Shown here in pieces: positions 12,665 through 52,970 of a stretch of DNA of 61,151 bases (within the stretch, counting starts at the first letter, position 1; the number at the start of each line of letters is the position of its first letter). Source of the DNA: a virus (taxonomy: Duplodnaviria; Caudoviricetes); IMG/VR virus record IMGVR_UViG_3300022602_002290, positions 1-61,151 of that record; one strand, written 5' to 3'. The position numbers and the translations under genes were made by a program. The notes below the pieces were generated by a model. It ran no database searches and was not told where the DNA came from. It saw nothing but the letters and a program-made list of their open reading frames with translations.

Positions 12665-13417
12665 ATGAAAATAGTTTTAGTTACTGGGGGTTTCGACCCT
12701 CTCCATTCTGGTCATTTAGATTTATTTTACAAAGCCCGCGACCTTGGCGATAGACTCATTGTTGGAGTCAATAGCGATGCTTGGCTTGAACGCAAAAAAG
12801 GCCGTGCGTTTTTAGATCTGCGTACTCGTGTAGATATCATACAAAGTTTAAGTATGGTCTACGGTGTTGATATTTGGGATGATAGCGACGGAACTGCTAT
12901 AAAACTGCTTGAAAAAGTAAAAAGAGAAAATCCTAACGACACTATCATATTTGCTAACGGCGGAGATCGTACAGCAAATAACATTCCAGAATTAGTTGTA
13001 CCTGATGTTATTTTTAAGTTCGGTGTCGGCGGAGAGGAGAAAAAGAATTCGAGCTCATGGGTCCTTGAAGAATGGAAAGCACCTAAGACTGAACGACCTT
13101 GGGGTTACTATCGAACCATATACGATATTCCTGGAACTAAAGTCAAAGAACTTACTGTTAATCCTGGAGAATCTCTTAGCCTACAGCGACACAGACAGAG
13201 ATCCGAGTTTTGGCATGTTGCCCAAGGTCGATGTGCAGTTGAGCAACGTATGGCCGGGGGTTACTCATTACCTACACTAACGTTAGATACACAACAGCAG
13301 ATAGTGATTCCACAAAACGAATGGCACAGATTATATAATCCATTTGAAGAGCCTTGCCGAATAGTAGAAATACAATACGGAACTGAATGTAGCGAGGAAG
13401 ACATTGAGCGAGATTGA
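12665..13417 (+). CDS. Cytidylyl/adenylyltransferase (RfaE/TagD-like) fused to a mannose-6-phosphate isomerase-type cupin
   Basis: TGGFDPLHSGH (HxGH) N-terminal domain; RPWG...LSLQRH..RSEFW...HRL.N...EIQYG C-terminal domain. Confidence 0.9.
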   Translation: MKIVLVTGGFDPLHSGHLDLFYKARDLGDRLIVGVNSDAWLERKKGRAFLDLRTRVDIIQSLSMVYGVDIWDDSDGTAIKLLEKVKRENPNDTIIFANGGDRTANNIPELVVPDVIFKFGVGGEEKKNSSSWVLEEWKAPKTERPWGYYRTIYDIPGTKVKELTVNPGESLSLQRHRQRSEFWHVAQGRCAVEQRMAGGYSLPTLTLDTQQQIVIPQNEWHRLYNPFEEPCRIVEIQYGTECSEEDIERD

Positions 13418-14750
13418 TCGCATTCGTAAAGTAATACCAATAGTCAATGAAGTAAGTCCTACATTCTGTTTGGCTAAATGGCATCATACAACTATCTATT
13501 TGCAAAGCGGGCAAACACATAGTTGTTATCATCCACGACCACATACTATACCTTTAGATCTATTAGCTGAAGACCCTAGCGTCTTGCACAACACACCTGG
13601 TAAAAGACAAGAACGCAAACTAATGATAGATGGCAAAAGACCTAGTGGTTGCCAATACTGTTGGAACATAGAAGATCTAACAACAGATCATATTAGTGAT
13701 AGACATGAGCGTAACGCAGGTATCTATACAGAAGAAAGACTAGGAGCTATTCTCAAGGATCCTCTAGCTCCTGTAAATCCAGAATACATTGAAATATCGT
13801 TTGGTAATGAATGCAATTTCAAATGCGGATACTGCCATCCAAAACATAGTTCTGCTTACCATAAAGAGATCAAAGACTTTGGTCCGTATACGATGGTAAA
13901 GAATCATCGCAATGATATAGACTATCTACATCTGTATGAAGAAGAAACTAATCCATATGTTGATGCATGGTGGGCATGGTGGCCTGAAGTTAGCAAGACT
14001 CTAAATATCTTGCGAATAACGGGTGGGGAACCTTTGTTGCAAAAATCAACTTGGAAATTATTAGATGATCTGGCTGTTAACCCTAAACCTAATCTTGAGC
14101 TTAATATTAATAGTAATCTTGGCATCAAGCCTATTATGATGGAACGCCTAGTCGAAAAGGTAAATGCTTTGATTAAAGACAAAAAGATCAAACACTTTAA
14201 ACTATTCACAAGCATAGATACATGGGGCAAGCCTGCAGAATACATTAGAACAGGACTAGATATCAATGTGTGGGAAAAGAATCTTGATACATATCTAACC
14301 AAAACTAAACAGCCTATTACTTTTATGTGTACGTTCAATATACTAACAGTAACCAATTTCCATTTGCTGTTAAAAGAAATAACAAGATGGCGTAAGAAAT
14401 ACAACAGTTGGTTTAGTCGTAAACAACGTATTAGGTTTGATACTCCTTATCTAAAAGAACCTTTGCAGTATGATATGAATCTGTTGCCAAAAGAAGAATT
14501 TATGCCTTACATGGACATTACTTTAGAGTATATGCAAAGAAACAAATTCTCGACACTCGAATGTGAAAAATTCAGTCGTGTTGTTGAGTATATGAGAACT
14601 ACAACATATGAAGATACAAAAATTATTGAGGGTCGCAGAGACTTCTATAATTGGTTTACTGAATACGACTGCAGACGCGGTACGGACTTTCTTAAAACCT
14701 TTCCAGAACTCGCAAGATTCTATTTTGACTGCAAAGCCCTTTCTTCTTAA
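13404..14750 (+). CDS. Radical SAM protein with an N-terminal SPASM/twitch-like Cys cluster
   Basis: CNFKCGYC and GGEP; N-terminal FC..W...SC...GC.YC. Confidence 0.9.
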   Translation: MSEIDRIRKVIPIVNEVSPTFCLAKWHHTTIYLQSGQTHSCYHPRPHTIPLDLLAEDPSVLHNTPGKRQERKLMIDGKRPSGCQYCWNIEDLTTDHISDRHERNAGIYTEERLGAILKDPLAPVNPEYIEISFGNECNFKCGYCHPKHSSAYHKEIKDFGPYTMVKNHRNDIDYLHLYEEETNPYVDAWWAWWPEVSKTLNILRITGGEPLLQKSTWKLLDDLAVNPKPNLELNINSNLGIKPIMMERLVEKVNALIKDKKIKHFKLFTSIDTWGKPAEYIRTGLDINVWEKNLDTYLTKTKQPITFMCTFNILTVTNFHLLLKEITRWRKKYNSWFSRKQRIRFDTPYLKEPLQYDMNLLPKEEFMPYMDITLEYMQRNKFSTLECEKFSRVVEYMRTTTYEDTKIIEGRRDFYNWFTEYDCRRGTDFLKTFPELARFYFDCKALSS

Positions 14751-16002
14751 TTTTTCTTTTGAACGCAATCAAGAAGATAGTTTAGAAAACTTTATAGACT
14801 GCCCAGATGTTAATCCGTCAGGGTTGAGTCGATTCCATCCCTGCATATTAGCTACTGTTACTCTTACCTATGATCATTTAGAACAAGATGTATTGCTGTA
14901 CACCAAACAAAACTTTACATTTGGACAACAGCCTAGTCCTTATGTTATTGCATCTGGAGTTAGACATCATCCAGATAACTGGACTACACCTAAAGGCAAG
15001 AAGAATTTGTTTGAATGGTTGAATCCAACATACCTAAAAGATTTGCAGGAAGGCCATGCTGTATTATTGTTAGATCAATGCTTAGAAGGATACCATACTC
15101 CTTATTTGTGGCAATGGTTTCACGATAGCTGTTCTAAATATAATGTTCCTCCTGAAGCGGTTGTGTATGTCACAGGCAACTGGAGAACCGCAGATGATTA
15201 TCAACAATGGGCAGGTAATAAATCTAATAAGATTAAAACAATACCATATACTCATTTTGAATCCTATGTCAAGTTTATAACAGACAAGCATAACATAAGG
15301 TCAGACTGGAATGATAATATCAAATACAAACAAAACAATAAGATAAAAACATACAACTGTCTACAAAAACGATTACGAACACATCGCATTTGGTTTTATG
15401 CAGAACTATACAAGGCTGGGTTGTTAGATCAGGGACTGGTTAGCATGAACGACTATGGCCCGCATGTAAATGGCCTAGACGGAAGGGCTCCTAATAATTT
15501 ACTTCTGCAGAAAGCAAGAACCGTGCTACCTTTAGAAGTCTACGGCAAATCAAATGTCCGATTTGATGACAGCTATTACATAGATAGGATTGTAGATCAA
15601 GTGTATAAAGACACTTGGGTAACTGTAGTAAGCGAGCCTATATTTGCAGATAGCGACAATGCACTATTCATTAGTGAAAAGACTTTTAAACCTATAGCAT
15701 GTATGCATCCTTTTATCATACTAGGTGGTAAAGGTAGCCTACAGGCCATGCGAGATATGGGCTACAGAACATTTGATGGTTTTATCGATGAAAGCTACGA
15801 TCAGTTGTCGACTTTTGAAAGGATAGATGCTATAATCAAAGAGATCAAGAGAATAGATGCTATAGAAGATAAACTAAGTTGGTTTAAAGGTATGAAAGAA
15901 ATATTAGAACACAATTACAATACATTCCACGAGTCTAAAAACAAAAGACCGACGGCCTCTACTGAATTTGTAAATTATTGCAAAGGATATTTTAATGTAT
16001 AA
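14725..16002 (+). CDS. Glycosyltransferase-like protein (ISEKTFK motif)
   Basis: VVSE...FISEKTFKPIAC.HPFI...GYRTF..FIDESYD; start uncertain (TTG 14725 chosen; the ORF is open from 14608). Confidence 0.55.
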   Translation: MTAKPFLLNFSFERNQEDSLENFIDCPDVNPSGLSRFHPCILATVTLTYDHLEQDVLLYTKQNFTFGQQPSPYVIASGVRHHPDNWTTPKGKKNLFEWLNPTYLKDLQEGHAVLLLDQCLEGYHTPYLWQWFHDSCSKYNVPPEAVVYVTGNWRTADDYQQWAGNKSNKIKTIPYTHFESYVKFITDKHNIRSDWNDNIKYKQNNKIKTYNCLQKRLRTHRIWFYAELYKAGLLDQGLVSMNDYGPHVNGLDGRAPNNLLLQKARTVLPLEVYGKSNVRFDDSYYIDRIVDQVYKDTWVTVVSEPIFADSDNALFISEKTFKPIACMHPFIILGGKGSLQAMRDMGYRTFDGFIDESYDQLSTFERIDAIIKEIKRIDAIEDKLSWFKGMKEILEHNYNTFHESKNKRPTASTEFVNYCKGYFNV

Positions 16003-16882
16003 TCTAGCTATACCTAACTTAAAAAAAGGTGATAAGGTTATTGTAGGCTTAGGAGATAGTTATACACAAGGCTTAGGATCGTATACAGATATAACCTGGA
16101 AGAAAAATAATTATATGATTCCAGTATACACTCATGATAAAAGATTAATAGCAGAGCAGTACCAAGGTAGCTGGGTATCACAATTATGTCAGACCTATTT
16201 AGAAGATTATGTTCCTGTAAATTTTGGGCAAGCAGGCATCGGCAATAGGGGAGCATTAAAACAGTTATATTTAAACACTCAGGTTGACTTATCTCTTGCA
16301 GACGAAGTGATTGTTGTTTATATGCTAACAGGATTAGAAAGATTTGATTTTATTAGAAAAAATTATGGTAGTGAAGAACATTATAATTTTCATACTATGT
16401 GGCCTAATCCTCACGACGAGGGAGCTACGCATCCTGATCTCTGGAAGGCATATGAAAAGAACATTTATTCAGATGAGTTTATGGCAGGTGAATTAATATT
16501 AAACATATTAGAAGCACAAACATATTGTAAAGCCAATAACTATCGATTAATAATAACAAACGGATTTGATCCTAGAGCAAGTAAGGAGTGGTTACGAAAG
16601 GCCCTATGGAGTAACATTCCTATACTAGGTAGAAATCAAAAGAAACTAATCGATAAGATAGATTGGAATAATTTTCTATATCCAAAAGGACATAAATCTT
16701 TCTTGTATTATCTTTTAGAGTTAGAAGGTATGAGCCATCTGGAAAACGGAGGGTGGTGGGATCACTATTCTAAATTGCCAAGGCCTAGCGAATATATTAC
16801 TAATTGTGTTCATCCTACGCATAAAGGTCATTCAATAATCGCAAAAGAGATTTATGAGTTTATAAATGCAAATAGATACTGA
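15995..16882 (+). CDS. SGNH/GDSL hydrolase or acyltransferase-like protein
   Basis: GLGDSYTQG block I, NFGQAG.GN block II and C-terminal HPT.KGH. Confidence 0.75.
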   Translation: MYNLAIPNLKKGDKVIVGLGDSYTQGLGSYTDITWKKNNYMIPVYTHDKRLIAEQYQGSWVSQLCQTYLEDYVPVNFGQAGIGNRGALKQLYLNTQVDLSLADEVIVVYMLTGLERFDFIRKNYGSEEHYNFHTMWPNPHDEGATHPDLWKAYEKNIYSDEFMAGELILNILEAQTYCKANNYRLIITNGFDPRASKEWLRKALWSNIPILGRNQKKLIDKIDWNNFLYPKGHKSFLYYLLELEGMSHLENGGWWDHYSKLPRPSEYITNCVHPTHKGHSIIAKEIYEFINANRY

Positions 16883-17471
16883 ACACCTACATCATTGGAT
16901 GCAGGCTATACGGCAAAGTCCTGATCCTATGCGGACTATGGATGCCTTTTGGTCCGGACAACTCAAAAGCAAAGAATGGCTGATTGATAATTTAGACGAG
17001 TACGTACACTCAGCATCTAGCATAGAAATATGTGCAGGCTGGGTAGGTGTATTAGCCAGTATGTTGTTCCAAAGCAATATACCAATTACTCATATTGCCA
17101 GTTATGATATTGATCCTACTTGCAAGCCTATAGCAGAAGCAATGAATAAGCTAGAGGAAATGCAAGGCAGGTTCCGTGCCAGCGTAGTAGATATAAGTCA
17201 TCCTATGCATATGAGTGCTGATATTATCATTAATACCAGTTGTGAACATCTTACACAAGAACAATATAATAGTTGGTTAACCTACACTCCTAAAGATAGT
17301 TTGCTTGTATTGCAGAGCAATAATTATAATATACTAGAACACGTAAGAATTGCCAACGACCTAGAAGAATTTAAAACACAATGTGGTGTTGATATTATAT
17401 GGGCAGGTGAGCTAGAATTACCGTTGTATACTAGGTATATGATTATTGGAAAAAATAATGAACCTTCATAA
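16866..17471 (+). CDS. Class I SAM-dependent methyltransferase-like protein
   Basis: ICAGWVG, SYDID and IINTSCEH motifs. Confidence 0.75.
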   Translation: MQIDTEHLHHWMQAIRQSPDPMRTMDAFWSGQLKSKEWLIDNLDEYVHSASSIEICAGWVGVLASMLFQSNIPITHIASYDIDPTCKPIAEAMNKLEEMQGRFRASVVDISHPMHMSADIIINTSCEHLTQEQYNSWLTYTPKDSLLVLQSNNYNILEHVRIANDLEEFKTQCGVDIIWAGELELPLYTRYMIIGKNNEPS

Positions 17472-18198
17472 TATAGATAATGTGATCATTCCGTTTGATA
17501 AGAGATGGAATAAAATTGCTATCAGTGTAAGCGGTGGTGCTGATAGTGCGTATCTTGCTTATCTGATCAGTGCATTTGTCTATCACTATGAAAGAACGGA
17601 TGTTGAAATACATGTTATTAGCCATACCAGGATGTGGAAGACACGTCCCTGGCAATCTTATGATAGCAAACAAGTATTTGATTGGTTAGTAAACAGATTT
17701 CCAGATATCAAATTTATCAGACACATAAACTTTATTGCGCCTGATTTAGAATGGGGCAATAAAGGTCGAATACTAACAGATGAATATGGTAAAGAAGTAA
17801 GCGGTGATAATATACAGCAAAGATCCTATGCAGAGTATATCTGCTATCACCATAATATAGATGCATACTATAATGCAGTTACTCGCAATCCTAAAAATGT
17901 AGACTTCAAAGGCCTGAGCCCGAGAGATGTAGATCCTACAGAAGATAATCAACATTTAGTATTAATGCAACACATGGATGTTTGGGCTATACATCCTTTT
18001 AGATTTACAGAAAAGAGCTGGGTAATAAAACAGTATCGTGAAATGGGTCTAATGGATCTGTTTGAATTAACTCGTAGTTGTGAAGGCGAGTTTGAGGGTA
18101 TTGACTATAAAACATATAAGCCAGGACAGTATGTTCCTGTATGCGGAGAGTGTTTTTGGTGCAAAGAAAGAGAGTGGGCATTAAATGTTCAAGTTTGA
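17458..18198 (+). CDS. QueC-like PP-loop ATPase (7-cyano-7-deazaguanine synthase fold)
   Basis: SGGADS PP-loop and TRSC...CGECFWC.ER zinc site. Confidence 0.7.
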   Translation: MNLHNIDNVIIPFDKRWNKIAISVSGGADSAYLAYLISAFVYHYERTDVEIHVISHTRMWKTRPWQSYDSKQVFDWLVNRFPDIKFIRHINFIAPDLEWGNKGRILTDEYGKEVSGDNIQQRSYAEYICYHHNIDAYYNAVTRNPKNVDFKGLSPRDVDPTEDNQHLVLMQHMDVWAIHPFRFTEKSWVIKQYREMGLMDLFELTRSCEGEFEGIDYKTYKPGQYVPVCGECFWCKEREWALNVQV

Positions 18199-19249
18199 CG
18201 AACTACAGCAGATACATTTAGAAATCACAAACAACTGCCAAGCCAGTTGTCCTATGTGTTCTAGAAACATACATGGCGGATTAGATAATCCGTTGATAAC
18301 ATCTGCTGGTTGGACTATTGATGATTTCAAAGCAGTAATGACTCCTGAAGTATTCGCGCAGATTAGGAGTTTTTATTTCTGCGGAAACTTTGGAGATCCT
18401 ATACTGAACAATGATCTAATTAAGATGTGCGAGTACGCTAAAGAAATGGCTCCGGGTATGCCTGTTCGTATACACACAAACGGTAGTGCTAGATCTGTTA
18501 GCTGGTGGAAACAATTAGCCAAAGCAATGCCAGATAAAAATGGTATTGTATTTGCGCTAGATGGTTTAGAAGATACTCACAGTATCTATAGGATAGGTAC
18601 AGATTTTAACACTATCATTCGAAATGCAAAAGCTGTTATAGAAGAAGGTATAGAAGCAGAATGGGTGTTCATTAGATTTAAGCATAACGAACATCAAGTA
18701 GAACAAGCACGAGCAATGGCTAAAGATTTAGGGTTTACTACGTTTACAGTAAAGAACAGTAGTCGTTTCTTATTAGATCCGCAGTATCCTGTTTTAAACA
18801 AACAAGGAGAAACAATATATAACCTAGAACCGTCTACTGATAATAAAATGGTATTCATTGATAAGAAAGTAATTGAAAACTATAAGACTGTTATGGATAC
18901 TATGGAAATAGATTGCTATGCTCAAAAAGAACGTGAGCTATACATAGATGCTTATAAAAATGTATTTCCTTGTTGCTGGCTGTCTAGTATTCCTTATAAC
19001 CATATAGAAGATAATCCGTTATCGAGTGTAAGATACGAGATTAGAAATGAGTATACTAATCTAATGAATACTCTCGGTAATGTTAACGGTGTTGAGCGTT
19101 CTATTAAAGATATAATTGATTCTGATGCTTGGCAGACATGTTGGGAAGAATACTGGACAACTAAGAAACTGATAACCTGTGCAAGAACATGCGGGCGTTC
19201 TAATGCTGTATCGTTTGCACAGCCAAGAGATCAAAAAGAAAATGTCTAA
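18185..19249 (+). CDS. Radical SAM protein with a C-terminal SPASM/twitch domain
   Basis: CQASCPMC, GNFGDP and C-terminal C...PCC...C..TC. Confidence 0.9.
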   Translation: MFKFDELQQIHLEITNNCQASCPMCSRNIHGGLDNPLITSAGWTIDDFKAVMTPEVFAQIRSFYFCGNFGDPILNNDLIKMCEYAKEMAPGMPVRIHTNGSARSVSWWKQLAKAMPDKNGIVFALDGLEDTHSIYRIGTDFNTIIRNAKAVIEEGIEAEWVFIRFKHNEHQVEQARAMAKDLGFTTFTVKNSSRFLLDPQYPVLNKQGETIYNLEPSTDNKMVFIDKKVIENYKTVMDTMEIDCYAQKERELYIDAYKNVFPCCWLSSIPYNHIEDNPLSSVRYEIRNEYTNLMNTLGNVNGVERSIKDIIDSDAWQTCWEEYWTTKKLITCARTCGRSNAVSFAQPRDQKENV

Positions 19250-20546
19250 TACTATTTGTACGCTTCCTTGGATACATTTGGCTACAAGACCTAACGGAGA
19301 TGTTAGAGTATGTTGTACAGCTAATGCCAGCGGTGCAGGTGAGGATGATATTAAAGATGCAGGTCTTGTAAAGAAAGACGGGCGAATAATGAATCTGCAA
19401 CAAGACACAATAGATGAAGTATGGAATAGTGATTATATGAAAACTATAAGACTTCAGATGTTAGCAGGTGAAGCCCCGCCTAGTTGTAGGAAATGCTATG
19501 CAGAAGAAGCAAGCGGTATTGTTAGTAAAAGACAATGGGAAAAGGAAGTTTGGAAAGATAGACTAGATATCGAAAGCATTATTGGATCAACAACAGAAGA
19601 TGGAAGCCTTCCTGTGAGTATTCCTTATTTTGATTTACGATTAGGTAACATGTGCCAACTTAAATGTATCATGTGTAGTCCGCACGATAGTAGTAGTTGG
19701 ATCAAAGAATGGAAACTACAGTATCCAAAATATAAAACTATAGAACTCAAACAGGATCAGCGTTGGGATAGCGATTTTGATTACACATGGTATAAGAAAG
19801 GTAGTTTCTTAGAAGACATGCGTTCTCAATCTGCTAACATACGAGAGTTGTATTTTGCGGGCGGCGAACCTTTACTAATACCAGAACACTACAAGATATT
19901 AGAGTTTATGGTAGAAACAGGTGCGGCTAAAAATTGTGTGCTACGTTATAACAGTAATGGATTAGAACTTCCAGACCGCTTGTTTGATTTATGGAATCAT
20001 TTTAAAGAGGTTAAGTTTAATTTTAGTATAGATGCAATAGGCGATAGAAATGATTATATACGCTATCCTAGTAAATGGAAAGATGTTACTACTAACTTAG
20101 AACGATTAGATGATACCCCAGACAACATTACGGTAAACATTGCCTGTGCTGTGCAGTTATTAAACGTATTAACAGTACCAGAATTAGTGCATTGGAAAGA
20201 AAGTAAAAACTTTAAAAAGATTAACTTACCTCCCTATGGTGCAGGATTGATAGGAACTCACTTAGTTTATCTACCTAGCTATTTGAATGTAAGAGTTTTA
20301 CCAAAGCATCTAAAACAAAAAGTAATAAAGAATGTAGACTACTTTTGTTCTCGTAGATCAAGTGATCGAGAGTTTATTTCAAATCCATACGGATTCAAAC
20401 GCTGGCAAGGACTTGTACAATATATGATGGCAGAGGATTGGTCAAACAAACTCCCTATGCTTGAAGATTATCTAACAACAACAGATCAACAACGTGGTAC
20501 AAACTTTAGGAAAACTTTCCCTGAATTATCCGACATTTTTGAATAG
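19242..20546 (+). CDS. Radical SAM protein with an N-terminal SPASM/twitch-like cluster
   Basis: CQLKCIMC and AGGEP; N-terminal C.LPW...CC...C.KC. Confidence 0.9.
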   Translation: MSNTICTLPWIHLATRPNGDVRVCCTANASGAGEDDIKDAGLVKKDGRIMNLQQDTIDEVWNSDYMKTIRLQMLAGEAPPSCRKCYAEEASGIVSKRQWEKEVWKDRLDIESIIGSTTEDGSLPVSIPYFDLRLGNMCQLKCIMCSPHDSSSWIKEWKLQYPKYKTIELKQDQRWDSDFDYTWYKKGSFLEDMRSQSANIRELYFAGGEPLLIPEHYKILEFMVETGAAKNCVLRYNSNGLELPDRLFDLWNHFKEVKFNFSIDAIGDRNDYIRYPSKWKDVTTNLERLDDTPDNITVNIACAVQLLNVLTVPELVHWKESKNFKKINLPPYGAGLIGTHLVYLPSYLNVRVLPKHLKQKVIKNVDYFCSRRSSDREFISNPYGFKRWQGLVQYMMAEDWSNKLPMLEDYLTTTDQQRGTNFRKTFPELSDIFE

Positions 20547-24771: not shown

Positions 24772-24812
24772 AGAAATATTTATGTACGCATTTAATGGTG
24801 TTAAATATATCT

Positions 24813-38704: not shown

Positions 38705-38727
38705 TTTTTCCTTTGATAATTACTTAC

Positions 38728-45291: not shown

Positions 45292-46225
45292 AATAAAAAG
45301 TTTTGGACAACAGACATTACTAGATAATCCTAGGTTTAATGTTAGTTGGATATTAGGTAGATTTTGTAATTATAAATGTTCTTACTGTTGGCCATATGCC
45401 AGATCCGATAAGCCAGACTATGCAGAGTTAGAAGTTTATAAAACTGCTGTAAATGAAATAAAGAGACAGGCCGGAGAAAATGGATTCACCGAATTCCACT
45501 GGAGCTTCAGCGGGGGAGAACCTACTGCGTACAAGCATCTTTTAGAACTAATCAAACATCTTGATGAGACCACAAGTTTCTATCAAAGCATACACATGAC
45601 TACTAATTTAAGTCCAGGCCTAAATTGGTGGAGAAGTTGGCATTATGCTACAGAAATGCTACAAAGACGAAGCATTACTGCCAGTTTTCATGCAGAATTT
45701 GCAAAAGAAAATGAGTTTGCTGAAAAGTGCTTACAGTTAATGTATGACAGGGTTCATGTTACAATTAATCAAGTTATGGTTCCTGAAAAGTTTTACGAAA
45801 CATTAGAACGTTGCGAGCGTTTTAGATCTCGCGGTATCAATGTTACGCTAAAACCGCAAAGCAACGATACTGCTACTGCTATTGTTCAAGGATACACGCC
45901 TGAAATGATTAGCATCATGCAGAATGATTTTGAACAGCAAGAAGGATATCAAATTAGGCTAACTGACGGAATTAACAACTACTTTATTGATCAAGCAGAA
46001 CGATTCAATGCATTAGGGTTTAACAAATTTAAAGGTTGGAAATGCTCTGCAGGGTTTCAAGGGTTAATTATTAGAGGAAATGAAGTAAAGCGTGGATATT
46101 CTTGCAAGGAAGAGTCTATAGGAACACTAGAAAAATTTAATCTGCTGAGATCTCCTACTTTATGTGTTACAGACAGTTGCGTAAGCTCTGCAGACAGCAA
46201 GATGCCCAAATACAGGATTGAATAA
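45272..46225 (+). CDS. Radical SAM protein with a twitch domain
   Basis: CNYKCSYC, SGGEP and W.C.AG...C...C; paralog of 20978-21892. Confidence 0.9.
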   Translation: MTIPLNEIKSFGQQTLLDNPRFNVSWILGRFCNYKCSYCWPYARSDKPDYAELEVYKTAVNEIKRQAGENGFTEFHWSFSGGEPTAYKHLLELIKHLDETTSFYQSIHMTTNLSPGLNWWRSWHYATEMLQRRSITASFHAEFAKENEFAEKCLQLMYDRVHVTINQVMVPEKFYETLERCERFRSRGINVTLKPQSNDTATAIVQGYTPEMISIMQNDFEQQEGYQIRLTDGINNYFIDQAERFNALGFNKFKGWKCSAGFQGLIIRGNEVKRGYSCKEESIGTLEKFNLLRSPTLCVTDSCVSSADSKMPKYRIE

Positions 46226-46248: not shown

Positions 46249-46977
46249 ATGCTAGATATACTAAAAAACAAAATCCTAACCTGGACTCCAGAAGCCGCTG
46301 ATACTTTTTTCCAAGGAACAATTAGATATTCCTATCTAGGCGGACGGATTTGGGAAATTGCACCAACTGGGTATTATCTATGGTCGTCTGACTACGCAGG
46401 ATACTTTGACAACAATGGTAAAACTTATGAACTATTTGTTAAAGACAACGAAGCAGACATAACATTCAAGCAAACTTTAAGCAACTATGTTGACAATTCT
46501 GGCGCTGTTAAAATAGAAAAGCCCACACTAATACAGTCAGTTAATATGTTTGGTCTAGTTTGTACCTATGTTGAGCAACAGCGTCCTTATAATTCGCATG
46601 GTATTAATTTGATGAACATGATCGCTGTTCCTAATAATTTTGAAGATAATTATCTACAAATAATACAGCAAGCAATTTTATCATATGAAAAATTAGTAAC
46701 AGCTATTGATATTATGCAAGGCAATGAGACCTCTGGCACTTATCCTAATGCGGTATGGGATTCATACTTCTTAGATCCAGTAACTCAAAACATATTTTGG
46801 GCTGGACCAATGGAGTTTATTTGTAATAGACAGGACTCTATACAAATAATGCAGGCTTCAACTGCGTATGCAGATACATTTGTTCAACAAGTGTGCGGGC
46901 ATACTAACGCTAGATCTATCCAAGCCGATTTAAATAATTTTATAAAAACACAATGTACAATACTTCAACTTCCTTAA
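46249..46977 (+). CDS. Hypothetical protein
   Basis: 242-aa ORF with TAAATA upstream. Confidence 0.7.
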   Translation: MLDILKNKILTWTPEAADTFFQGTIRYSYLGGRIWEIAPTGYYLWSSDYAGYFDNNGKTYELFVKDNEADITFKQTLSNYVDNSGAVKIEKPTLIQSVNMFGLVCTYVEQQRPYNSHGINLMNMIAVPNNFEDNYLQIIQQAILSYEKLVTAIDIMQGNETSGTYPNAVWDSYFLDPVTQNIFWAGPMEFICNRQDSIQIMQASTAYADTFVQQVCGHTNARSIQADLNNFIKTQCTILQLP

Positions 46978-47729
46978 TAGATTTTACAGTTCAAGACAAC
47001 GGATCGCAAGTATTCAGCGGCAAGATTCCCTATAATCTGTTAAATCATCTTACAGAAATTTTAGGATTTTCTAAAAACAATAGAGTAATAACATATAACA
47101 TCGACGGCAATTCTTTTAGTTTCAAAGGACCTGGAGATGATATTCTTTCAACAGGAACAGATGATCCTTCTCATTTTTCAAGATTAGTATATGACGGTGT
47201 TCAACACGCCAATGCTTTATATCAGCAAGCTCTACAAGATAGAAATTCATATGAGTTAATGCAACAACAACTAGATCAAGAAAAAATGACATTTGAAGCT
47301 AATGAAGCACAACGATTAACAGTAGAGGCATTTGATAATTTTAAAGAAATGCTAATTGCTCAGAAACAATTAACTGAAGAGCAAGCCCAATTAGCTGAAG
47401 CAGAAAAATTAAGACAAGATGAAAATAGAATAGCTCTTGTTAGAAGTATAGCATTAGATCCTTCAACAGCACCAGATGCACTACAATCTGAGTTTGGTCA
47501 AACAGGTGATGTAAGAAGACAGATAGCCGCTGTTATGACTGCCAATGTTGAAATTTCAAAATTAGTAGCGGCAGTCAATCCTATGTATTGGATGTCTAGT
47601 TATGAAATTATGTCAGTACTAGGATCTCAGTGTTCCGAAAATCAAAGCCTAGCACGTATAGTAGCAAATCAATTACCAGACGATAGTAATTTGAAAAAGA
47701 TGCTAACCAATTTTGGTTGGGTCAACTAA
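46953..47729 (+). CDS. Hypothetical coiled-coil protein
   Basis: Q/E/A-rich central helix. Confidence 0.7.
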   Translation: MYNTSTSLIDFTVQDNGSQVFSGKIPYNLLNHLTEILGFSKNNRVITYNIDGNSFSFKGPGDDILSTGTDDPSHFSRLVYDGVQHANALYQQALQDRNSYELMQQQLDQEKMTFEANEAQRLTVEAFDNFKEMLIAQKQLTEEQAQLAEAEKLRQDENRIALVRSIALDPSTAPDALQSEFGQTGDVRRQIAAVMTANVEISKLVAAVNPMYWMSSYEIMSVLGSQCSENQSLARIVANQLPDDSNLKKMLTNFGWVN

Positions 47730-49176
47730 ACACTTTAACTTTATATAAACTTTCAAAGTTACGTGCATCAGTAGTATTATTCACCATAGGTTTTCCTTTA
47801 ACATTAAGGCTGGTGTTTAACAACATAGGACATCCTGTCCGAGCATACCATAATTCTAAGAGTTGTCTGAAAGGTGATCCATCTTTTGGGACTGTTTGTA
47901 CACGAGATGTCCCGTCAGCATGAACGATAGCAGGAAATAAGTCAGGAACCCTACAACGAGCGATGACTTGCATATACCTACTGTTATTCCAACCGCTAGG
48001 CATATCAAAGTAAGTGTCACATAGCTCCTCCAAAATTGCGGGAGCAAATGGTCTAAATTGTTGTCGTTGTTTAATTGCATTTACTTTATCCTTTATATCC
48101 GGACCTCTAGGATCCGCTAACAAACTTCTATTACCTAAAGCACGTGGACCAAACTCTGCTCGTCCCCTAGCAAGTCCGCAAATTTTATTTTCTTCCAGAT
48201 AAGTTACGATCTTATCGTTAGTAGTTGTGCCGCCCATATCGTGTCCTAGATAAGGACCTGGCCATTCAATATGCATTTTGTCTACTGCTAATACTGAACC
48301 TACTGCGCTACCTGCATCACCAGGTGCTGGCATTATCCATGTCTTATCAAAATACTTTCCTGTAAGACGATTAGCAACACAATTTAATGCACAGCCTCCG
48401 CTCAACACTAGATTTTTACTTTTAGTTAGACGCTTGGCTTTTATTAGTAAGTGTTCAAAATAGTCTTCATATATCTTTTGTGTAGTAGCCGCTATATCAA
48501 AATCGCTTGCATCCGGCTTGTAGTCTTTAACGCCTCTATGACAGTTACGAATAAATTTTAAATTTCCGTAGTTGTCTATAAAGTCGTGGCTCATATCAAA
48601 ATATAGTTTACTTGCGTCCCCGTATGCTGACATTCCCATTAGAATATATTCTTCTTCGTTAGGTTTCAATCCTACACGCTGAGTCATTGCACTATAAAAT
48701 AATCCAATAGAATGCGGATAGATTAGGCTCCATAACTTCTTAAGTTTGTTTCCTTGGCCTTCCCAGATTGTGGCAGTTTCAAACTCTCCTATAGCGTCAA
48801 TAACAATAACACAGGCGTTGTCCCAACCGCTGGTATAATAGCCGCCAGCCGCATGACTATGATGATGTCCGGCAAATTCTAATTTTGTAGTGGGTAGATA
48901 CTCTTTTAGATATCTTCTGATGTTGTTTTCTTTAAGACGCAATCCTTGTCCTGCTGTAAATTGGCGCAGGGTTTTTAACAAGGGCTTTTCATACCAAACA
49001 ATTCTATCTGGTGTAAGTCCACGAAAGTGTAGATCGTATATTAAATCTTTATTCAGATCAGGGTCATTTTTTATACCGCTGTATCTTTCAGTCTCGGAAG
49101 CAAATATCAGTCGCTGATCAGCATATACAGCAACTGCCGCATTATGACTATTAGCTGATATGCCCCAGGTAATCAT
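47722..49176 (-). CDS. Carbamoyltransferase (NodU/CmcH/TobZ family)
   Basis: HHHSHAA, ID.IGE, GGCALNC, EFGPRALGNRS, FRPFAP and LLNTSLN. Confidence 0.95.
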   Translation of the reverse strand: MITWGISANSHNAAVAVYADQRLIFASETERYSGIKNDPDLNKDLIYDLHFRGLTPDRIVWYEKPLLKTLRQFTAGQGLRLKENNIRRYLKEYLPTTKLEFAGHHHSHAAGGYYTSGWDNACVIVIDAIGEFETATIWEGQGNKLKKLWSLIYPHSIGLFYSAMTQRVGLKPNEEEYILMGMSAYGDASKLYFDMSHDFIDNYGNLKFIRNCHRGVKDYKPDASDFDIAATTQKIYEDYFEHLLIKAKRLTKSKNLVLSGGCALNCVANRLTGKYFDKTWIMPAPGDAGSAVGSVLAVDKMHIEWPGPYLGHDMGGTTTNDKIVTYLEENKICGLARGRAEFGPRALGNRSLLADPRGPDIKDKVNAIKQRQQFRPFAPAILEELCDTYFDMPSGWNNSRYMQVIARCRVPDLFPAIVHADGTSRVQTVPKDGSPFRQLLELWYARTGCPMLLNTSLNVKGKPMVNNTTDARNFESLYKVKVFS

Positions 49177-49274
49177 TTGTATATATAAGGATCACGCATT
49201 CGTAACTGTTTAATGCGTTTGCGTTCTCTATACCAATGCAGTGGATTCATTAATATTTTTAGTAAGTTTCTCAT
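49173..49274 (-). CDS. Small basic peptide (33 aa, MRNLLKILMNPLHWYRERKRIKQLRMRDPYIYK), not in the ORF track
   Basis: RBS AAGGA; its stop overlaps the carbamoyltransferase start (ATGA). Confidence 0.65.
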   Translation of the reverse strand: MRNLLKILMNPLHWYRERKRIKQLRMRDPYIYK

Positions 49275-49938
49275 ATGTTTCCTTCAACCATTCGTAATCA
49301 TTAATCTTTAATAGTGCATCCGGATCATCTTTATTTACGGACCCGTATTCACGTCCTGCAACAGCACCCATATATCCTTGTGCGCCAAATGGTTCTGTTT
49401 CATTTAATGAACACCATGCGTTCAATCTCTGTTCGCTTTCGGCAGTAATTTGTCCATCGATTACCTTGCTAGATAATTTAACGCACTCTCTAAATGCTGA
49501 ACGCCATGCACTGAACGGATCTGTATTAAAGGCTGTAACGTTGCTGATTTCCGGCATAGCTTTAAACAATTTACTAATGCTGGTTGTCATGTCGGGCTTA
49601 GACAAATCCATTTCTATTGTAAGTTTCTTTGGTAGTAACTTAACTCCACCGTAACCATATTCTAGATTATTAAGCGGGTTTCGACTGCGCCACACATGCA
49701 CACATTCTAAATCCCATTCAGGAACTTTGTAATCAAAGTTGAACGAGTCTAATATTTGTGCATCACCGTCTACTACCCAAAACATTTCAGTAAAGCTCAT
49801 ACGTGCGGCTTTGATGTGCGCTTGATGTATGCCTTTAACATCTTTTACACGTTTAGCTAATGGGAACCGTGCCTTAACACGCTGATAGTTTTCTTCAGCA
49901 TTAGGTTCTTCATAACTGATAAAAATTAAATCATACAC
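49228..49938 (-). CDS. GT-A glycosyltransferase-like protein
   Basis: FISYEEPNA, VDGD (DxD) and WRSAFRECVK. Confidence 0.7.
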   Translation of the reverse strand: MYDLIFISYEEPNAEENYQRVKARFPLAKRVKDVKGIHQAHIKAARMSFTEMFWVVDGDAQILDSFNFDYKVPEWDLECVHVWRSRNPLNNLEYGYGGVKLLPKKLTIEMDLSKPDMTTSISKLFKAMPEISNVTAFNTDPFSAWRSAFRECVKLSSKVIDGQITAESEQRLNAWCSLNETEPFGAQGYMGAVAGREYGSVNKDDPDALLKINDYEWLKETYEKLTKNINESTALV

Positions 49939-50806
49939 GATTGAGCCTGTAAAATTCTTCGAATAGATCTACCATATTTTCGCTTTGTGCAGGATCTATT
50001 AATTGCAATTTTCCTTCAAAGAAGTTTTGTAGTTTCTTTCCATAATAGTCGCATGCGTATTCAACGTCATCACCAATAGTATTAAATTCTTCTTTGAGTA
50101 AATCAAAATCTCTGACTCTGGTTATATCCCAATCTGTTAACATAGTTTGATAACAGCCTTGTCTTGCACCTGCAATAGCCCAGAGACCGTTTTCTATATG
50201 ACTGCCTACTGTTAGCCATATTTTAAGTCTAAAAAGATTTTCCCACCAAATAGCTTCCCTAGCAGTATCTCCTTTGCAACGGATACCACGATCTAAACAC
50301 ATCTTAACACCTTCGCGGAATCCGGCACGCCATGCCTGATAAGGTGTTTTATTAATATGAGTTACTGAATAGCTTTTGGCTAACGGAATGTAACCTGACT
50401 CCCAACAGAAGTCTACATCGTTCTTACCAACTTCTGCGGCTTCGTGTGTACGCATATTCCATATGAACTCTCTGCGCCACGCTTTAAGGCTACCGTTACC
50501 GTAACGTAGTCCGTTAATAATATTTTTGCCTGGCCAACTGAATGCCTGTGCATTAGCATAAACATCTGTATCAATTTCTAAATCTAAAAAACTTTCGTCA
50601 ATGACATTGTCTGCATCTACAGTGACTAACCATTCTGTTTCGCTAATATCAGCCGCGGCTTTATGACAAGCGTCACTGCCCTTAACTCCGTGAACACGTT
50701 TTACCCAGGGAGCGATAGCTGACAGTTTTGCAAAGTTCATTTCGGCATTAGGTTCATCATAGCTGATAAACACCATATCGATTTCGTTAATTTTTAGTAA
50801 TGGCAT
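49931..50806 (-). CDS. GT-A glycosyltransferase-like protein (paralog of 49228-49938)
   Basis: FISYDEPNA, VDAD and WRAGFREGVK. Confidence 0.7.
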   Translation of the reverse strand: MPLLKINEIDMVFISYDEPNAEMNFAKLSAIAPWVKRVHGVKGSDACHKAAADISETEWLVTVDADNVIDESFLDLEIDTDVYANAQAFSWPGKNIINGLRYGNGSLKAWRREFIWNMRTHEAAEVGKNDVDFCWESGYIPLAKSYSVTHINKTPYQAWRAGFREGVKMCLDRGIRCKGDTAREAIWWENLFRLKIWLTVGSHIENGLWAIAGARQGCYQTMLTDWDITRVRDFDLLKEEFNTIGDDVEYACDYYGKKLQNFFEGKLQLIDPAQSENMVDLFEEFYRLNRV

Positions 50807-51347
50807 AAACTGATATATCCTTGGGTCCTGTGTAATCTAGTTCAATTGGCCGACCTTCCAGGAAATTGTCTAACTCAACTGTATAACTTGCATACAGGAA
50901 ATAAGGGTTACCTTTTTGAGTGACTTGTAAATTATACTGCTTTCCCTTGACCAAAGTCAACCTATCTATGTTTTCCTGATTGGTTAATGCACCAAAATAA
51001 TTTTTATCGTAGTTGAGAGTTAATCGGTTATCTTTTAGATTTACCATAATACAGCAATCAGCTATGAAATTCTCGTATGGGTTTATTACTTTAAGAGTTT
51101 CATTATCGTCATTCTTTACCACTCGAGAATGTGCTATTTTCTTTTTCCTAAAACCCGTAACTTCGTTGTTTTCTATGATAGGATAATAGTCTGCAAGATT
51201 TTTAAATTCTACAAAGAATGGCTCTATCAATTTCCAATCAACTGCCTTGACTGTGTATCCAGATTCTTCCTGAACGTGCAGTCCTGCAGAATGTATATTC
51301 AAGGAAGACGAGTCAAATTTTACAAAATGTCTTTGTATTTGTTCCAT
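50787..51347 (-). CDS. Hypothetical protein
   Basis: 186-aa coupled ORF. Confidence 0.7.
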   Translation of the reverse strand: MEQIQRHFVKFDSSSLNIHSAGLHVQEESGYTVKAVDWKLIEPFFVEFKNLADYYPIIENNEVTGFRKKKIAHSRVVKNDDNETLKVINPYENFIADCCIMVNLKDNRLTLNYDKNYFGALTNQENIDRLTLVKGKQYNLQVTQKGNPYFLYASYTVELDNFLEGRPIELDYTGPKDISVYAITKN

Positions 51348-52180
51348 ACTTTATCTTCCAATAGGTTAATTAGTGCATCAGAAATTAAATCTTTCTTTGT
51401 GTAATGCAAAATATCTTGTTGTACAAAAGGACCTAGCCTTACATTAAAATCTTTGTCATAGTAAAACGGAATGTGTTCAGTCCAATCGTCACTTAGTCCA
51501 ACCCCTTGTGATTTTGGTTTCATATGTGTAAATCTAGGAAACGGCAATTTAGGGTTACTTATGTCTTCAACTATGTCTAGCATCTTTGCGGCTAATGCGC
51601 ATGCTTCGTCAGTAGGTATACTTTCAAACTTGCAATTGATCAATTGATCCTTCCAAGTTTCTGGAAAGTCTGTGAGTGCTCTTAGCACATCAAAAAACTT
51701 AGTCGTTTCTCTGCTTTGTTTAAAATACAACCATCCTGAATAAAAGTCTGGAAGATTATTATCAACAAACACTTTGCGATAATACTTGTCCTCCATTGTA
51801 GTATTGCGAAATGTCATAGGACGAGTAGCGCACCAAAGATCATGCTTCTGCATGTGTGGCCACCAATGGCTAACATCATTAAGGAATAAGAAGTCTCCGT
51901 CGATAAACACAGTTTCTTCATAGGGAGTTAGTTCGTATGCACGTGAACGGCAGTTCATTCCCTTAGGACCTTCGTAATCTATTATATTATCAAATACCCA
52001 AGACAATTTTAAATTTTGTGCGTTGCGTACTTGATTGGTCGCAATTGATACTGAATTAAATCCATCTGGTTGTGTTAATTTAATAGTAAGAGCTGTGACA
52101 TAAGCCAGTCTAAGATAATCTGACTGTTTTGTAGGAAGTGCTATCATAAAATAGCCGCTAGGTAATCTTTTTTCAATCAT
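51320..52180 (-). CDS. GT-A (GT8-like) nucleotide-sugar transferase
   Basis: TPYEETVFIDGD, YSG..YF and HY. Confidence 0.7.
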   Translation of the reverse strand: MIEKRLPSGYFMIALPTKQSDYLRLAYVTALTIKLTQPDGFNSVSIATNQVRNAQNLKLSWVFDNIIDYEGPKGMNCRSRAYELTPYEETVFIDGDFLFLNDVSHWWPHMQKHDLWCATRPMTFRNTTMEDKYYRKVFVDNNLPDFYSGWLYFKQSRETTKFFDVLRALTDFPETWKDQLINCKFESIPTDEACALAAKMLDIVEDISNPKLPFPRFTHMKPKSQGVGLSDDWTEHIPFYYDKDFNVRLGPFVQQDILHYTKKDLISDALINLLEDKVWNKYKDIL

Positions 52181-52970
52181 TGGCCAACTCCGATAATTTA
52201 TCTAGGTTTGCCAACAGATCAAATTTATTCATCATATGAACATCTTGATCTTTAGTCTTTATTAAAAAATTTTCTATTCCTACTACCCATGCAAGATTAT
52301 CTTTGCTCACTTTGATTAAATTATCTTGATCATTAAAAAATACAGGACTAGGCAATGCTGTGTAGAAATCATTCATAGTGTGGCATGCAATGGTAAATGC
52401 ATAATCATTTCTAAATCTTCTTGTATCAAATTTATACAAAGCTCCATACCATTGCCAATTTTCTTTGATATGATCTACTAAGTTAAACAATGCTTCTACT
52501 TCTGGAGTCTTATTAAAAATTATGTTTGTTGCCCATAGCATATCTAAACTTGCAGGATCAAATCGTACATGACTTCCTTGTCTAGTAGGATGTAGATCTT
52601 TCATGCTTTCGCATATCATAAAATCATAATTGCTATCAAGGTATTCTTTCAATCTAGAGCTAAAGACTAAGAAATCGCTGTCAATTACTAATGTTCTATC
52701 ATATGGGGTTAGATGATATACAGAATTTCTATTGCCATTTTTAAAAGATATTTCTTTGCCAGCAAGTATTCTTTTGTTGCCAGAATCTGTGTTATCGGAA
52801 TAGACTACTGATTCAAATACGCCAATGTCAATAGCAGAAGCAGTAGCGGCATCTGTAATCAATGTTACAGGAATGCCAAGATGCTTCTTAACTAATCGTG
52901 CAGATAGAACTGCTTGTGGGCCATAGGCTATATCGCCATCATAGGCAAAAATTACGCAACCACATGTCAT
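52173..52970 (-). CDS. GT-A (GT8-like) nucleotide-sugar transferase
   Basis: TPYDRTLVIDSD and RNDYAF. Confidence 0.7.
   Translation of the reverse strand: MTCGCVIFAYDGDIAYGPQAVLSARLVKKHLGIPVTLITDAATASAIDIGVFESVVYSDNTDSGNKRILAGKEISFKNGNRNSVYHLTPYDRTLVIDSDFLVFSSRLKEYLDSNYDFMICESMKDLHPTRQGSHVRFDPASLDMLWATNIIFNKTPEVEALFNLVDHIKENWQWYGALYKFDTRRFRNDYAFTIACHTMNDFYTALPSPVFFNDQDNLIKVSKDNLAWVVGIENFLIKTKDQDVHMMNKFDLLANLDKLSELAND

Follow-up and report, generated by a model that had tools for sequence, protein, structure and literature searches.

A radical SAM-rich island of sugar-handling and tailoring genes behind fibre-like genes of a giant freshwater phage

What would a phage make with ten radical S-adenosylmethionine (SAM) enzymes, and to which molecule would the product be attached? 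The question is posed by IMG/VR virus record IMGVR_UViG_3300022602_002290, a linear sequence of 61,151 bases that was analysed in its entirety (the window) and that carries some 45 kb of closely packed sugar-handling and tailoring genes directly behind genes for fibre-like proteins. CheckV completeness of this fragment is 17%, which puts the genome size near 360 kb; the source is an uncultured giant phage of fresh (lake) water, probably T4-like and roughly 360 kb in size. An initial annotation, read from the sequence, had placed at 12665..52970 a biosynthetic cluster making heavily modified sugars or amino acids for the decoration of virion proteins and/or DNA. Its observation is partly confirmed and its interpretation partly supported here: there is indeed such an island, it is conserved and striking, and others of its kind have been described (2017, 2020). 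The reading that we favour, and to which we give about an even chance, is that a soluble, lipid-carrier-free pathway builds and tailors a glycan, which is probably placed on the phage's fibre-like proteins.

Gene packing and the radical SAM enzymes

We examined 69 open reading frames (ORFs) of the window, 47 of them within 12665-52970; they are referred to by their coordinates, and negative Pfam results for the window apply to all 69. From 12665 to 59825 no intergenic gap exceeds 60 nt, and in 35 of 40 pairs of same-strand neighbours the genes overlap or are at most 10 nt apart, in agreement with the translational coupling suggested earlier for most genes. The leftward operon proposed at the same time was recovered as a block of 11 co-directional genes, running from 59825 to 47722 and containing a carbamoyltransferase and four glycosyltransferase (GT)-like ORFs. 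The limits of the cluster had been drawn too narrowly: synteny with relatives places 9251 and 10393 in the island on the left, and on the right the operon-like block extends via 52967, 53319, 57716 and 58576 to the IscA-type gene at 59825.

The count of ten radical SAM enzymes held in full. PF04055 has exactly 10 matches in the window, 8 of them above the curated cut-off, and the CxxxCxxC motif is intact in the same 10 ORFs and in no other of the 69 (10 of the 47 ORFs in 12665-52970). These genes are:

13404..14750, plus strand: N-terminal-twitch radical SAM enzyme (NF033640, 308.7 bits), in one orthogroup with proteins of Bdellovibrionota and of phage RsoM2USA
18185..19249, plus strand: core radical SAM enzyme with a C-terminal Cys-rich part (PF04055)
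19179..20546, plus strand: core N-terminal-twitch radical SAM enzyme (NF033640, 430.1 bits), its true start likely near 19245
20978..21892, minus strand: STM4011-like radical SAM enzyme, paralog of 45272 (Pfam, NCBIfam)
22695..23960, minus strand: N-terminal-twitch radical SAM enzyme (NF033640, 333.7 bits)
36231..37328, plus strand: radical SAM enzyme with an N-terminal SPASM/twitch-type Cys domain, not a member of NF033640 (45.6 bits, under cut-off)
39935..41017, plus strand: radical SAM enzyme with an N-terminal Zn ribbon, HMPTM/TrsS/Tes-like (Pfam, NCBIfam)
42075..45291, plus strand: two B12-binding-type radical SAM paralogs, 42075 and 43675, 47% identical (Pfam, NCBIfam)
45272..46225, plus strand: core STM4011-like radical SAM enzyme (Pfam, NCBIfam)

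Membership of NF033640 (N_Twi_rSAM, twitch domain-containing radical SAM protein; hereafter N-Twi), for which the curated cut-off is 170 bits, was found for three enzymes, 13404, 19179 and 22695 (309-430 bits). All three have four to five Cys ahead of the core motif, i.e., a Cys-rich domain N-terminal to CxxxCxxC, and Pfam places SPASM matches on the N-terminal domains of 19179, 22695 and 36231. We know of no characterised member of the family, and none scored above the cut-off in 14 model genomes. Isolated phages gave 21 records matching 19179, all below 60% identity (22.6-25.8% in the rows listed), and hence no close homolog; in metagenomes, one island enzyme has more than 4,500 homologs at E <= 1e-10. 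Ten such enzymes in a single phage island represent a large outlay on oxygen-sensitive chemistry.

Conserved cores, fibre-like genes and the Bdellovibrionota counterpart

The head of the leftward block, behind the IscA-type gene, holds the fibre-like genes and a transferase-like cassette:

57716..59487, minus strand: two fibre-like proteins, 57716 and 58576, homologous to the C-terminal domain of 53319 (paralogy, composition)
53319..57707, minus strand: 1462-amino-acid (aa) protein with subtilase S8, Ig-like (He_PIG, Big) and esterase domains and a C-terminal Ser/Thr/Asn-rich domain (Pfam, PHROG)
52967..53308, minus strand: 113-aa first cassette gene, possibly fibre-associated, in 76/80 cassette loci
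51320..52970, minus strand: paralog pair 51320 and 52173 (hhalign 99.5%), GT-like by motif only, with a weak DUF5672 match
50787..51347, minus strand: variable cassette slot, 186 aa, with homologs in 13/80 cassette loci
49228..50806, minus strand: paralog pair 49228 and 49931 with GT-A/nucleotide-diphospho-sugar-transferase fold and invariant DxD (model, alignment)

Only 53319, 57716 and 58576, among the 69 ORFs, have a combined fraction of Ser, Thr, Asn, Gly and Gln (S+T+N+G+Q) above 0.42, and a domain of about 230-300 aligned residues is common to them. Over its N-terminal third, 53319 shares 30-41% identity with a subtilisin-like cyanomyovirus protein, whose gene in phage S-H38 sits in the baseplate-wedge module. 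The earlier label of tail/baseplate-like genes is suggested by composition and by this baseplate-module homolog, and PHROG tail-fibre matches come from a relative and not from the window. Upstream of the cassette in G001, a relative of 268 kb, co-directional genes encode a protein of no fewer than 4,055 aa with a virion-structural PHROG match, proteins of 676 and 496 aa (tail-fibre and tail-collar PHROGs), one of 603 aa (virion-structural PHROGs) and one of 297 aa, followed by the 52967 homolog.

A profile of the 52173 family recovered at least 543 viral loci, which makes the cassette abundant, and the 80 best of them were compared (core 2). The order 52967-52173-51320-(variable gene)-49931-49228 is collinear in these 80, with 52967 present in 76, 52173 in 80, 51320 in 79, 49931 in 76 and 49228 in 68. 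Wherever at least 1.2 kb of upstream sequence was available, a co-directional ORF of at least 150 aa ends within 400 nt of the 52967 homolog (67/67 loci); this is one conserved gene order and not many independent associations, since at 30% identity the upstream ORFs form only 3 clusters, mostly of one protein family. Their S+T+N+G+Q fraction reaches 0.42 in 58/67 cases (median 0.46), against 14% of 1,218 background ORFs (median 0.276). Because the loci are related, the upstream ORFs were also dereplicated, after which 41/48 clusters at 90% identity and 22/23 at 50% identity were rich in these residues. The claimed link to virion genes therefore holds as gene order. In the cultured Ralstonia phage RsoM2USA (343.8 kb), the cassette lies in one run with a 13404-type N-Twi gene (37% identity), and the same run includes homologs of 49228 (47%) and of the methyltransferase-fold gene 16866 (33% identity).

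Four cassette genes had been called GT-A enzymes. For 49228 the fold supports this: its model (pLDDT 86.8) weakly matches GT-A glycosyltransferases in Foldseek (E 1.5e-4, TM 0.31-0.42), and VIA-align gives Z 9.1-10.8 over some 126-138 N-terminal residues. The fold class is clear but the reaction is not, since the match list mixes GT-A enzymes (B4GALNT1, ThuS/SunS, WrtF, PBCV-1 A64R) with nucleotidyltransferases (IspD, MobA); the DxD invariant in 49228 and 49931 favours a transferase. The label extends to 49931 by paralogy, whereas the outside link of 52173 and 51320 is the weak DUF5672 match only. Sequence-profile searches of solved structures returned nothing significant for either the 49228 or the 52173 family. 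Kinship between these two families was considered and dropped, as profile comparison gave no relation. For 52967, the nearest named ESM Atlas cluster is DUF4376 (0.91, 167 shared features), which is a lead only.

A further core (core 1) unites three radical SAM families, the family of 49228 and 49931, and a small methyltransferase-fold protein. Clustering of 2,239 ORFs, drawn from 80 viral loci and 78 cellular ones, gave the following occurrence, in which the N-Twi count is high by construction because the loci were collected with an N-Twi query:

N-Twi family (19179): 76/80 viral and 73/78 cellular loci
Family of 45272 and 20978: 74/80 viral and 49/78 cellular loci
Family of 18185: 80/80 viral and 49/78 cellular loci
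16866..17471, plus strand: core gene with class I SAM-methyltransferase fold, 201 aa (structure model); family in 79/80 viral and 28/78 cellular loci
Family of 49228 and 49931: 32/80 viral and 24/78 cellular loci

The 16866 model (pLDDT 90.7) has Foldseek matches with E down to 5e-10, including DnrK, TehB and the Nod-factor N-methyltransferase NodS; by sequence it has no family match, and its profile found nothing significant among solved structures (best E 0.18). The initial annotation had set a conserved core against a randomly reshuffled collection of genes, and synteny comparison of relatives shows the former.

The cellular loci come from a one-genome-per-species scan (303 of 385 candidates confirmed, 78 loci kept). 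As many as 71 of the 78 are labelled Bdellovibrionota, among them loci on megabase contigs and a locus of a cultured Bdellovibrio isolate; the remaining seven are metagenome-assembled genomes of other or unknown taxa and one Poseidonocella. Four Bdellovibrionota genomes (G006-G009; 1.9-3.9 Mb) have 7, 16, 9 and 12 N-Twi matches. In one of them (locus L161, G007:C1 about 792-803 kb), seven N-Twi genes in tandem are followed by an asparagine-synthase-type gene, a GT2 gene and a UDP-glucose dehydrogenase gene. In a maximum-likelihood (ML) tree of 65 rows each of three N-Twi paralog types groups phage and Bdellovibrionota members, so the paralogs diverged before the set was shared; for the 19179 type, support is 97 for the phage clade and 92 for the cell clade. 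The tree is a short search with long branches, and only the grouping by paralog type is relied on. The N-Twi paralogs thus appear ancient and have stayed separate, in line with distinct steps, and the 65-row tree has no sign of recent exchange between phages and Bdellovibrionota.

The neighbours of core 1 agree with the sugar reading proposed at the outset. In phage loci, UDP-glucose/GDP-mannose dehydrogenase families are found in 20 and 13 loci, and DegT is present too; cell loci contain GT2 families (in 13, 8 and 4 loci), GNAT, SIS, a QueC-like protein, a carbamoyltransferase and nucleotide diphosphate (NDP)-sugar epimerase/dehydratases. In the Bdellovibrio isolate the island is about 41 kb long and encodes N-Twi and other radical SAM enzymes, three UDP-glucose dehydrogenase-type proteins, two NAD epimerase/dehydratases, a half-size DegT, a polysaccharide lyase, at least five GT2 and one GNAT. 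The island's last gene encodes a fibre protein of 687 aa, rich in Ser and Thr, which has a Peptidase_S74 domain and an S+T+N+G+Q fraction of 0.45 and on which no signal peptide is evident. No flippase, polymerase or polyprenyl-phosphate transferase was found in the ~55 kb of this island and its flanks. A prophage origin was rejected, the flanks being chromosomal genes (thiolase, short-chain dehydrogenase/reductase (SDR), outer-membrane protein, flagellins). Two flagellin genes lie about 8.5 kb past the island (L177 8669-10910; G006:C1 about 1,907.7-1,909.9 kb), and flagellin is another conceivable target of cytoplasmic glycosylation in this isolate.

The predicted pathway and its alternatives

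Many of the enzyme names first given to the tailoring genes are supported by Pfam, NCBIfam or structural relatives, and the pathway outlined below draws on the following:

12665..13417, plus strand: cytidylyltransferase-like domain (RfaE domain II type) fused to a mannose-6-phosphate-isomerase-type cupin, the nucleotidyltransferase-cupin of the initial annotation (Pfam, NCBIfam)
23950..24771, minus strand: methyltransferase, MTS/PrmC-like (Pfam, NCBIfam)
27088..27738, plus strand: Asp/Arg beta-hydroxylase-type oxygenase (Pfam, E 3.1e-12)
30057..30632, plus strand: 2-oxoglutarate (2OG)-Fe(II) oxygenase, 2OG-FeII_Oxy_5/TIGR02466-like (Pfam, NCBIfam)
30629..31702, plus strand: StrB1-type amidinotransferase (best solved relative StrB1, 1bwd, E 1.4e-21), with a homolog in Campylobacter phage CP220
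31664..32851, minus strand: class III pyridoxal-phosphate-dependent aminotransferase (Pfam, E 3.6e-40)
32851..34362, minus strand: flavin-dependent halogenase (Trp-halogenase) family protein (E 2.5e-93; GxGxxG and WxWxIP motifs)
34344..35649: 2OG oxygenase 34344 (minus strand, above the TIGR02466 cut-off) and class I methyltransferase 35026 (plus strand) (Pfam)
47722..49176, minus strand: NodU/CmcH-type carbamoyltransferase, last gene of the leftward block (both Pfam halves; NodU best among NCBIfam models)
59499..59825, minus strand: IscA-type Fe-S carrier, first gene of the 11-gene leftward block (Pfam, NCBIfam), with homologs near the cassette in 11/80 related cassette loci

All three methyltransferases were confirmed, 23950 and 35026 by Pfam and 16866 by fold. 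The nine cupin/2OG ORFs fared unevenly: 27088, 30057 and 34344 are firm, 24795 and the pair 25396/26013 weak, and the oxygenase labels of 26543, 35626 and 37898 come from motifs read by eye. The three oxygenases assigned upstream (4794, 5658 and 10393) are all supported by Pfam.

What we observed is gene content, folds, packing, two conserved cores, the order behind fibre-like genes and the Bdellovibrionota core; from these we infer the acceptor, the timing and, by family resemblance, every chemical step. Activated sugars would be supplied through the nucleotidyltransferase-cupin 12665, and in relatives through UDP-glucose dehydrogenase and DegT. The cassette 52173-51320-(50787)-49931-49228 would transfer sugars in the cytoplasm without a lipid carrier, the most likely acceptors being the fibre-like proteins 53319, 57716 and 58576, rich in Ser, Thr, Asn, Gly and Gln. 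The remaining enzymes may edit the sugars, either as nucleotide sugars or once attached: the radical SAM enzymes by oxidation, epimerisation or C-H chemistry, the B12-type enzymes 42075 and 43675 by adding C-methyl groups, the aminotransferase followed by the StrB1-like amidinotransferase by turning amino into guanidino groups, and the NodU-like enzyme 47722 by adding carbamoyl groups. The remainder would fall to methyltransferases, 2OG oxygenases and possibly the halogenase, and the phage IscA could help to load the ten Fe-S enzymes.

Such a cytoplasmic pathway for a fibre glycan is favoured because the enzymes are soluble and their partners are sugar genes in two very different hosts, because the transferase-like cassette is tied to fibre-like genes, and because the window yielded neither lipid-carrier machinery nor a scaffold enzyme, a precursor gene or a DNA-directed enzyme. 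A bolder extension, which we hold to be possible though doubtful, is that giant aquatic phages and predatory Bdellovibrionota share an old lipid-carrier-free set that writes an edited glycan (amino, guanidino, carbamoyl, C-methyl and perhaps halogen edits) directly onto phage-tail-type fibres, with N-Twi enzymes acting on protein-attached sugars.

Published systems resemble the island in part. The host recognition clusters (HRC) of pelagimyophages and cyanomyophages, T4-like phages of aquatic habitats, are hypervariable islands among structural genes, placed between the VrlC gene and neck gene gp14, with a mean length of 44.6 kb in pelagimyophages and with tail fibres, glycosyltransferases, rfaE and radical SAM cassettes, for which O-chain modification was proposed (Zaragoza-Solas 2020, PMC7029224). 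The present island likewise joins fibre-like genes with transferase and non-structural genes and has variable content around conserved cores. It differs in that radical SAM genes form a conserved core here and add-on cassettes there, in the much larger phage (~360 kb by CheckV) and in the share held by Bdellovibrionota, of which the accessible text of that paper makes no mention. In the T4-like marine environmental viral genome TARA_ERS488813_N000010, 12 radical SAM genes occur together with an A-type Fe-S carrier (Nishimura 2017, PMC5332604). The window, compared by description only, similarly combines an IscA-type carrier with about a dozen radical SAM enzymes (IscA plus 10), whereas that genome was, in the accessible text, reported for Fe-S related metabolism only, without a sugar, fibre or bacterial link. 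Bdellovibrio MAT fibres are phage-tail-fibre-like trimers with S74 chaperone domains (Caulton 2024, PMC10769870), and the homologous island of the Bdellovibrio isolate closes with a Ser/Thr-rich S74 protein; this protein, being without an evident signal peptide, is likened to MAT fibres by domain only, and glycosylation is absent from the accessible text on those fibres (0 occurrences of "glycosyl"). Our literature searches found no published link of Bdellovibrio to such an island.

Freeman and colleagues are said to have described, in 2023, glycosylation of virion proteins in mycobacteriophages. Like that system and chlorovirus PBCV-1 (A64R), the island has candidate virus-encoded soluble glycosyltransferases adjoining structural genes, by gene order, the transferase fold being seen only for 49228. 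To our knowledge, virion glycosylation in mycobacteriophages and PBCV-1 involves few glycosyltransferases, and we know of no radical SAM, amidino-, carbamoyl- or halogenating enzymes there. A second difference is that the glycan of the present island is predicted from its genes. StrB1 is an enzyme of streptomycin synthesis, and NodS and NodU are Nod factor enzymes. They have counterparts in 30629 (StrB1), 47722 (NodU) and, by fold, 16866 (NodS), whereas the scores are far under the equivalog cut-offs, the island is without their scaffold enzyme or exporter, and the phage is lytic.

These likenesses point to competing explanations. Remodelling of the host surface, in which O-antigen, capsule or another envelope glycan would be altered, for instance against superinfection, would follow the O-chain reading of the pelagimyophage HRC (PMC7029224); the RfaE-domain-II-like nucleotidyltransferase of the window fits it, as do SIS and GT2 genes, typical of envelope glycans, in the cell loci. 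We nevertheless judge it unlikely: convincing membrane segments are lacking from all 69 ORFs, Pfam matches to a flippase, polymerase, ligase or polyprenyl-phosphate transferase family are absent from the window (as such genes are from the ~55 kb of the Bdellovibrio isolate region), and the fixed place of the cassette behind fibre-like genes is something this explanation does not need. The same position, together with four transferase-like genes heading the island, is left unexplained by a diffusible aminoglycoside- or nucleoside-like compound acting on the host or on competitors. Only a small chance is given to such a compound, even with the StrB1-like amidinotransferase, the class III aminotransferase, the NodU/TobZ-type carbamoyltransferase and the B12-type methylase-like enzymes to suggest it. 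Pfam matched no sugar-phosphate cyclase or inositol-phosphate synthase family in the window (distant or novel forms may escape), no other scaffold cyclase or synthase, no exporter and no self-resistance gene. For cyanophage S-SCSM2R, DegT-like, radical SAM and inosamine amidinotransferase genes have nevertheless been called "antibiotic synthesis genes", and an amidinotransferase and a dioxygenase were found in its virion proteome (2025; PMC12801897).

The initial annotation had rightly noted that non-ribosomal peptide synthetase and polyketide synthase domains are missing (none in Pfam scans of the window), and had taken this as favouring a macromolecule. The argument overlooks ribosomally synthesised and post-translationally modified peptide (RiPP) and aminoglycoside-type pathways, which need neither. 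A peptide would also come into play if radical SAM enzymes, hydroxylases, methyltransferases and the halogenase acted directly on side chains of the fibres or of an unseen peptide, with sugars in a minor role. The SPASM matches noted above, the Asp/Arg beta-hydroxylase-type oxygenase, the PrmC-like methyltransferase and weak matches of 42075 and 43675 to RiPP C-methyltransferase models (NCBIfam) all lean that way, as does peptide-modifying SkfB, the best solved match of the N-Twi profile (E 2.4e-8, core only). Its chance is slim all the same: gaps of at most 60 nt leave no space for a precursor gene (short ORFs overlapping other genes lie outside this check), Pfam matched no leader peptidase, PqqD-like recognition domain or peptide exporter in the window, and NDP-sugar enzymes and glycosyltransferases constantly accompany the radical SAM core in phages as well as in cells. 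Decoration of DNA, the second option of the initial annotation, is disfavoured and in our view very improbable. T-even phages modify their DNA with glucose, and a bulky base modification would suit a probably T4-like phage with a GT-A-type fold protein, a PP-loop/QueC-like protein and radical SAM enzymes; viral GT-A enzymes glycosylating DNA are known (bioRxiv 10.1101/2023.12.21.572611). The same core, however, lies on Bdellovibrionota chromosomes among polysaccharide-type genes (GT2, UDP-glucose dehydrogenase, asparagine-synthase-type), and no DNA-directed enzyme (hydroxymethylase, DpdA/TGT, base kinase, Tet/JBP family) is matched in the window. As for 7-deazaguanine modification, the QueC match is under cut-off (E 0.038) and confined to the C-terminus of 17446, and no QueE equivalog scores above cut-off.

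Several points count against a glycan on the fibre-like proteins. SPASM/twitch radical SAM enzymes are best known from peptide substrates, and SkfB, as mentioned, is such a case. The fold matches of 49228 include nucleotidyltransferases, and 52173 and 51320 are candidate sugar transferases with no confirmed fold. For 53319, 57716 and 58576 the case for fibres is indirect: 57716 and 58576 have no PHROG, PDB or Atlas names (ESM Atlas returns only unnamed viral clusters for 58576), and a profile search of solved structures with 58576 gave nothing significant. The upstream ORFs of the relatives reduce mostly to one family. Chemistry, glycan and expression are all deduced from genes, and genes of this sort have been read in print as host O-chain modification (PMC7029224) or antibiotic synthesis (PMC12801897).

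Should the product coat tail fibres, host recognition and phage stability would gain a chemical layer that sequence-based host prediction ignores, and a fibre glycan would be the first substrate for the N_Twi_rSAM family. N-Twi enzymes acting on attached sugars would bring a new substrate class to SPASM/twitch radical SAM enzymes; a shared glycan-writing set would make the fibre coat a tunable layer of host or prey recognition or protection. The sharing of the core with culturable Bdellovibrio strains makes product and target testable at the bench.

Remaining genes and occurrence

The other genes of the island and its surroundings are:

9251..11169, plus strand: left extension, 9251 (paralog of 14608) and 10393 (2OG-Fe(II) oxygenase, Pfam), collinear with 13404, 14608 and 15995 in relatives
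11542-12505, plus strand: SleB-type cell-wall hydrolase (Hydrolase_2, endolysin PHROGs), within the left part of the island
14608..16002, plus strand: 464-aa protein of no known family, following the 13404-type gene in relatives
15995..16882, plus strand: SGNH/GDSL-like protein (Lipase_GDSL E 0.0044, under cut-off; GDS motif)
17446..18198, plus strand: PP-loop ATPase with QueC-like C-terminus (SGGxDS motif; weak Pfam/PHROG matches)
20506..21003, minus strand: 165-aa ORF, possible gene remnant, overlapping the end of 19179 and the start of 20978; homologs in 2/80 cassette loci and no family match (Pfam)
24795..27100, plus strand: four small ORFs (24795, 25396, 26013, 26543), probably cupin-type oxygenases (weak)
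27725..29050, plus strand: 441-aa protein of no known family, common to Bdellovibrionota (16 viral and 3 cell loci)
29040..29651, plus strand: short SDR-like protein (weak matches)
37273..39944, no single strand: four ORFs without family, 37273 and 38713 (paralogs), 37898 and 39402 (weak FeeM/GNAT) (Pfam, paralogy)
41014..42047, minus strand: SpeD-like AdoMet-decarboxylase family protein 41014 (Pfam), as first annotated, and SGNH-motif ORF 41364
46249..47729, plus strand: two ORFs without family (46249, 46953), kept in the closest relatives
59894-61150, plus strand, running off the end: second Trp-halogenase-family gene, without WxWxIP (Pfam, motif check)

A 135-aa ORF overlaps the SleB-type hydrolase gene, and both are kept in the closest relatives. 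ORFs 25396 and 26013 are paralogs, and relatives of the 24795 and 26013 families have weak Asp_Arg_Hydrox matches (E ~3e-4). The families of 14608/9251 and 27725 have no Pfam match, and their profiles gave nothing significant among solved structures; Pfam scans of 52 relatives of unnamed ORFs likewise found no match for the 14608, 27725, 37898, 38713 and 21880 families. Some earlier names could be upheld in part at best: SGNH is a weak match for 15995 and a motif for 41364, and SDR (29040), QueC-like (17446) and GNAT (39402) are weak matches. The two kinase-like proteins, presumably 37273 and 38713, lost their label, which no search supports.

The phage origin of the island was corroborated by the IMG/VR virus record and by its relatives (126-268 kb), since three of the five related records that were searched carry a T4 gp23-type capsid gene; the window itself has no capsid gene. 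Among viral contigs, 101 of 102 candidate stretches found with the 19179 protein are relatives (57-83% identity), some of them on contigs of 126, 186 and 268 kb. Megablast with 43 kb of the island had no match in isolated phages. Freshwater and lake DNA runs contain the window sequence, 3 of 24 listed runs holding at least 84% of the sampled words; one of the runs may be the source sample, and there is no RNA run among the 24. In four freshwater/lake runs dated 2012 to 2020, contig pieces matching window positions 40001-60000 differ at 0-2 positions over up to 2.6 kb. No structural variant was drawn from contig joints in these four runs, as the joint sides were shorter than 30 letters or the contigs had diverged.

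Of the T4 late-promoter word TATAAATA the window has a single copy, both strands combined, against about 5 expected per strand, which offers no clue to the late expression proposed in the initial annotation. G+C is 44-47% in positions 1-10000 and 34-39% across the island (14000-54000); the drop on entering the island fits a compositionally distinct, possibly acquired block. A tRNA-Met (CAT) at 2573-2649 on the minus strand is the sole Rfam/ARAGORN match in the window. Outside the island, one more gene could be named:

540-1229, minus strand: homolog of mycobacteriophage Gene product 88 (PF17338, E 3e-37; phrog_1617)

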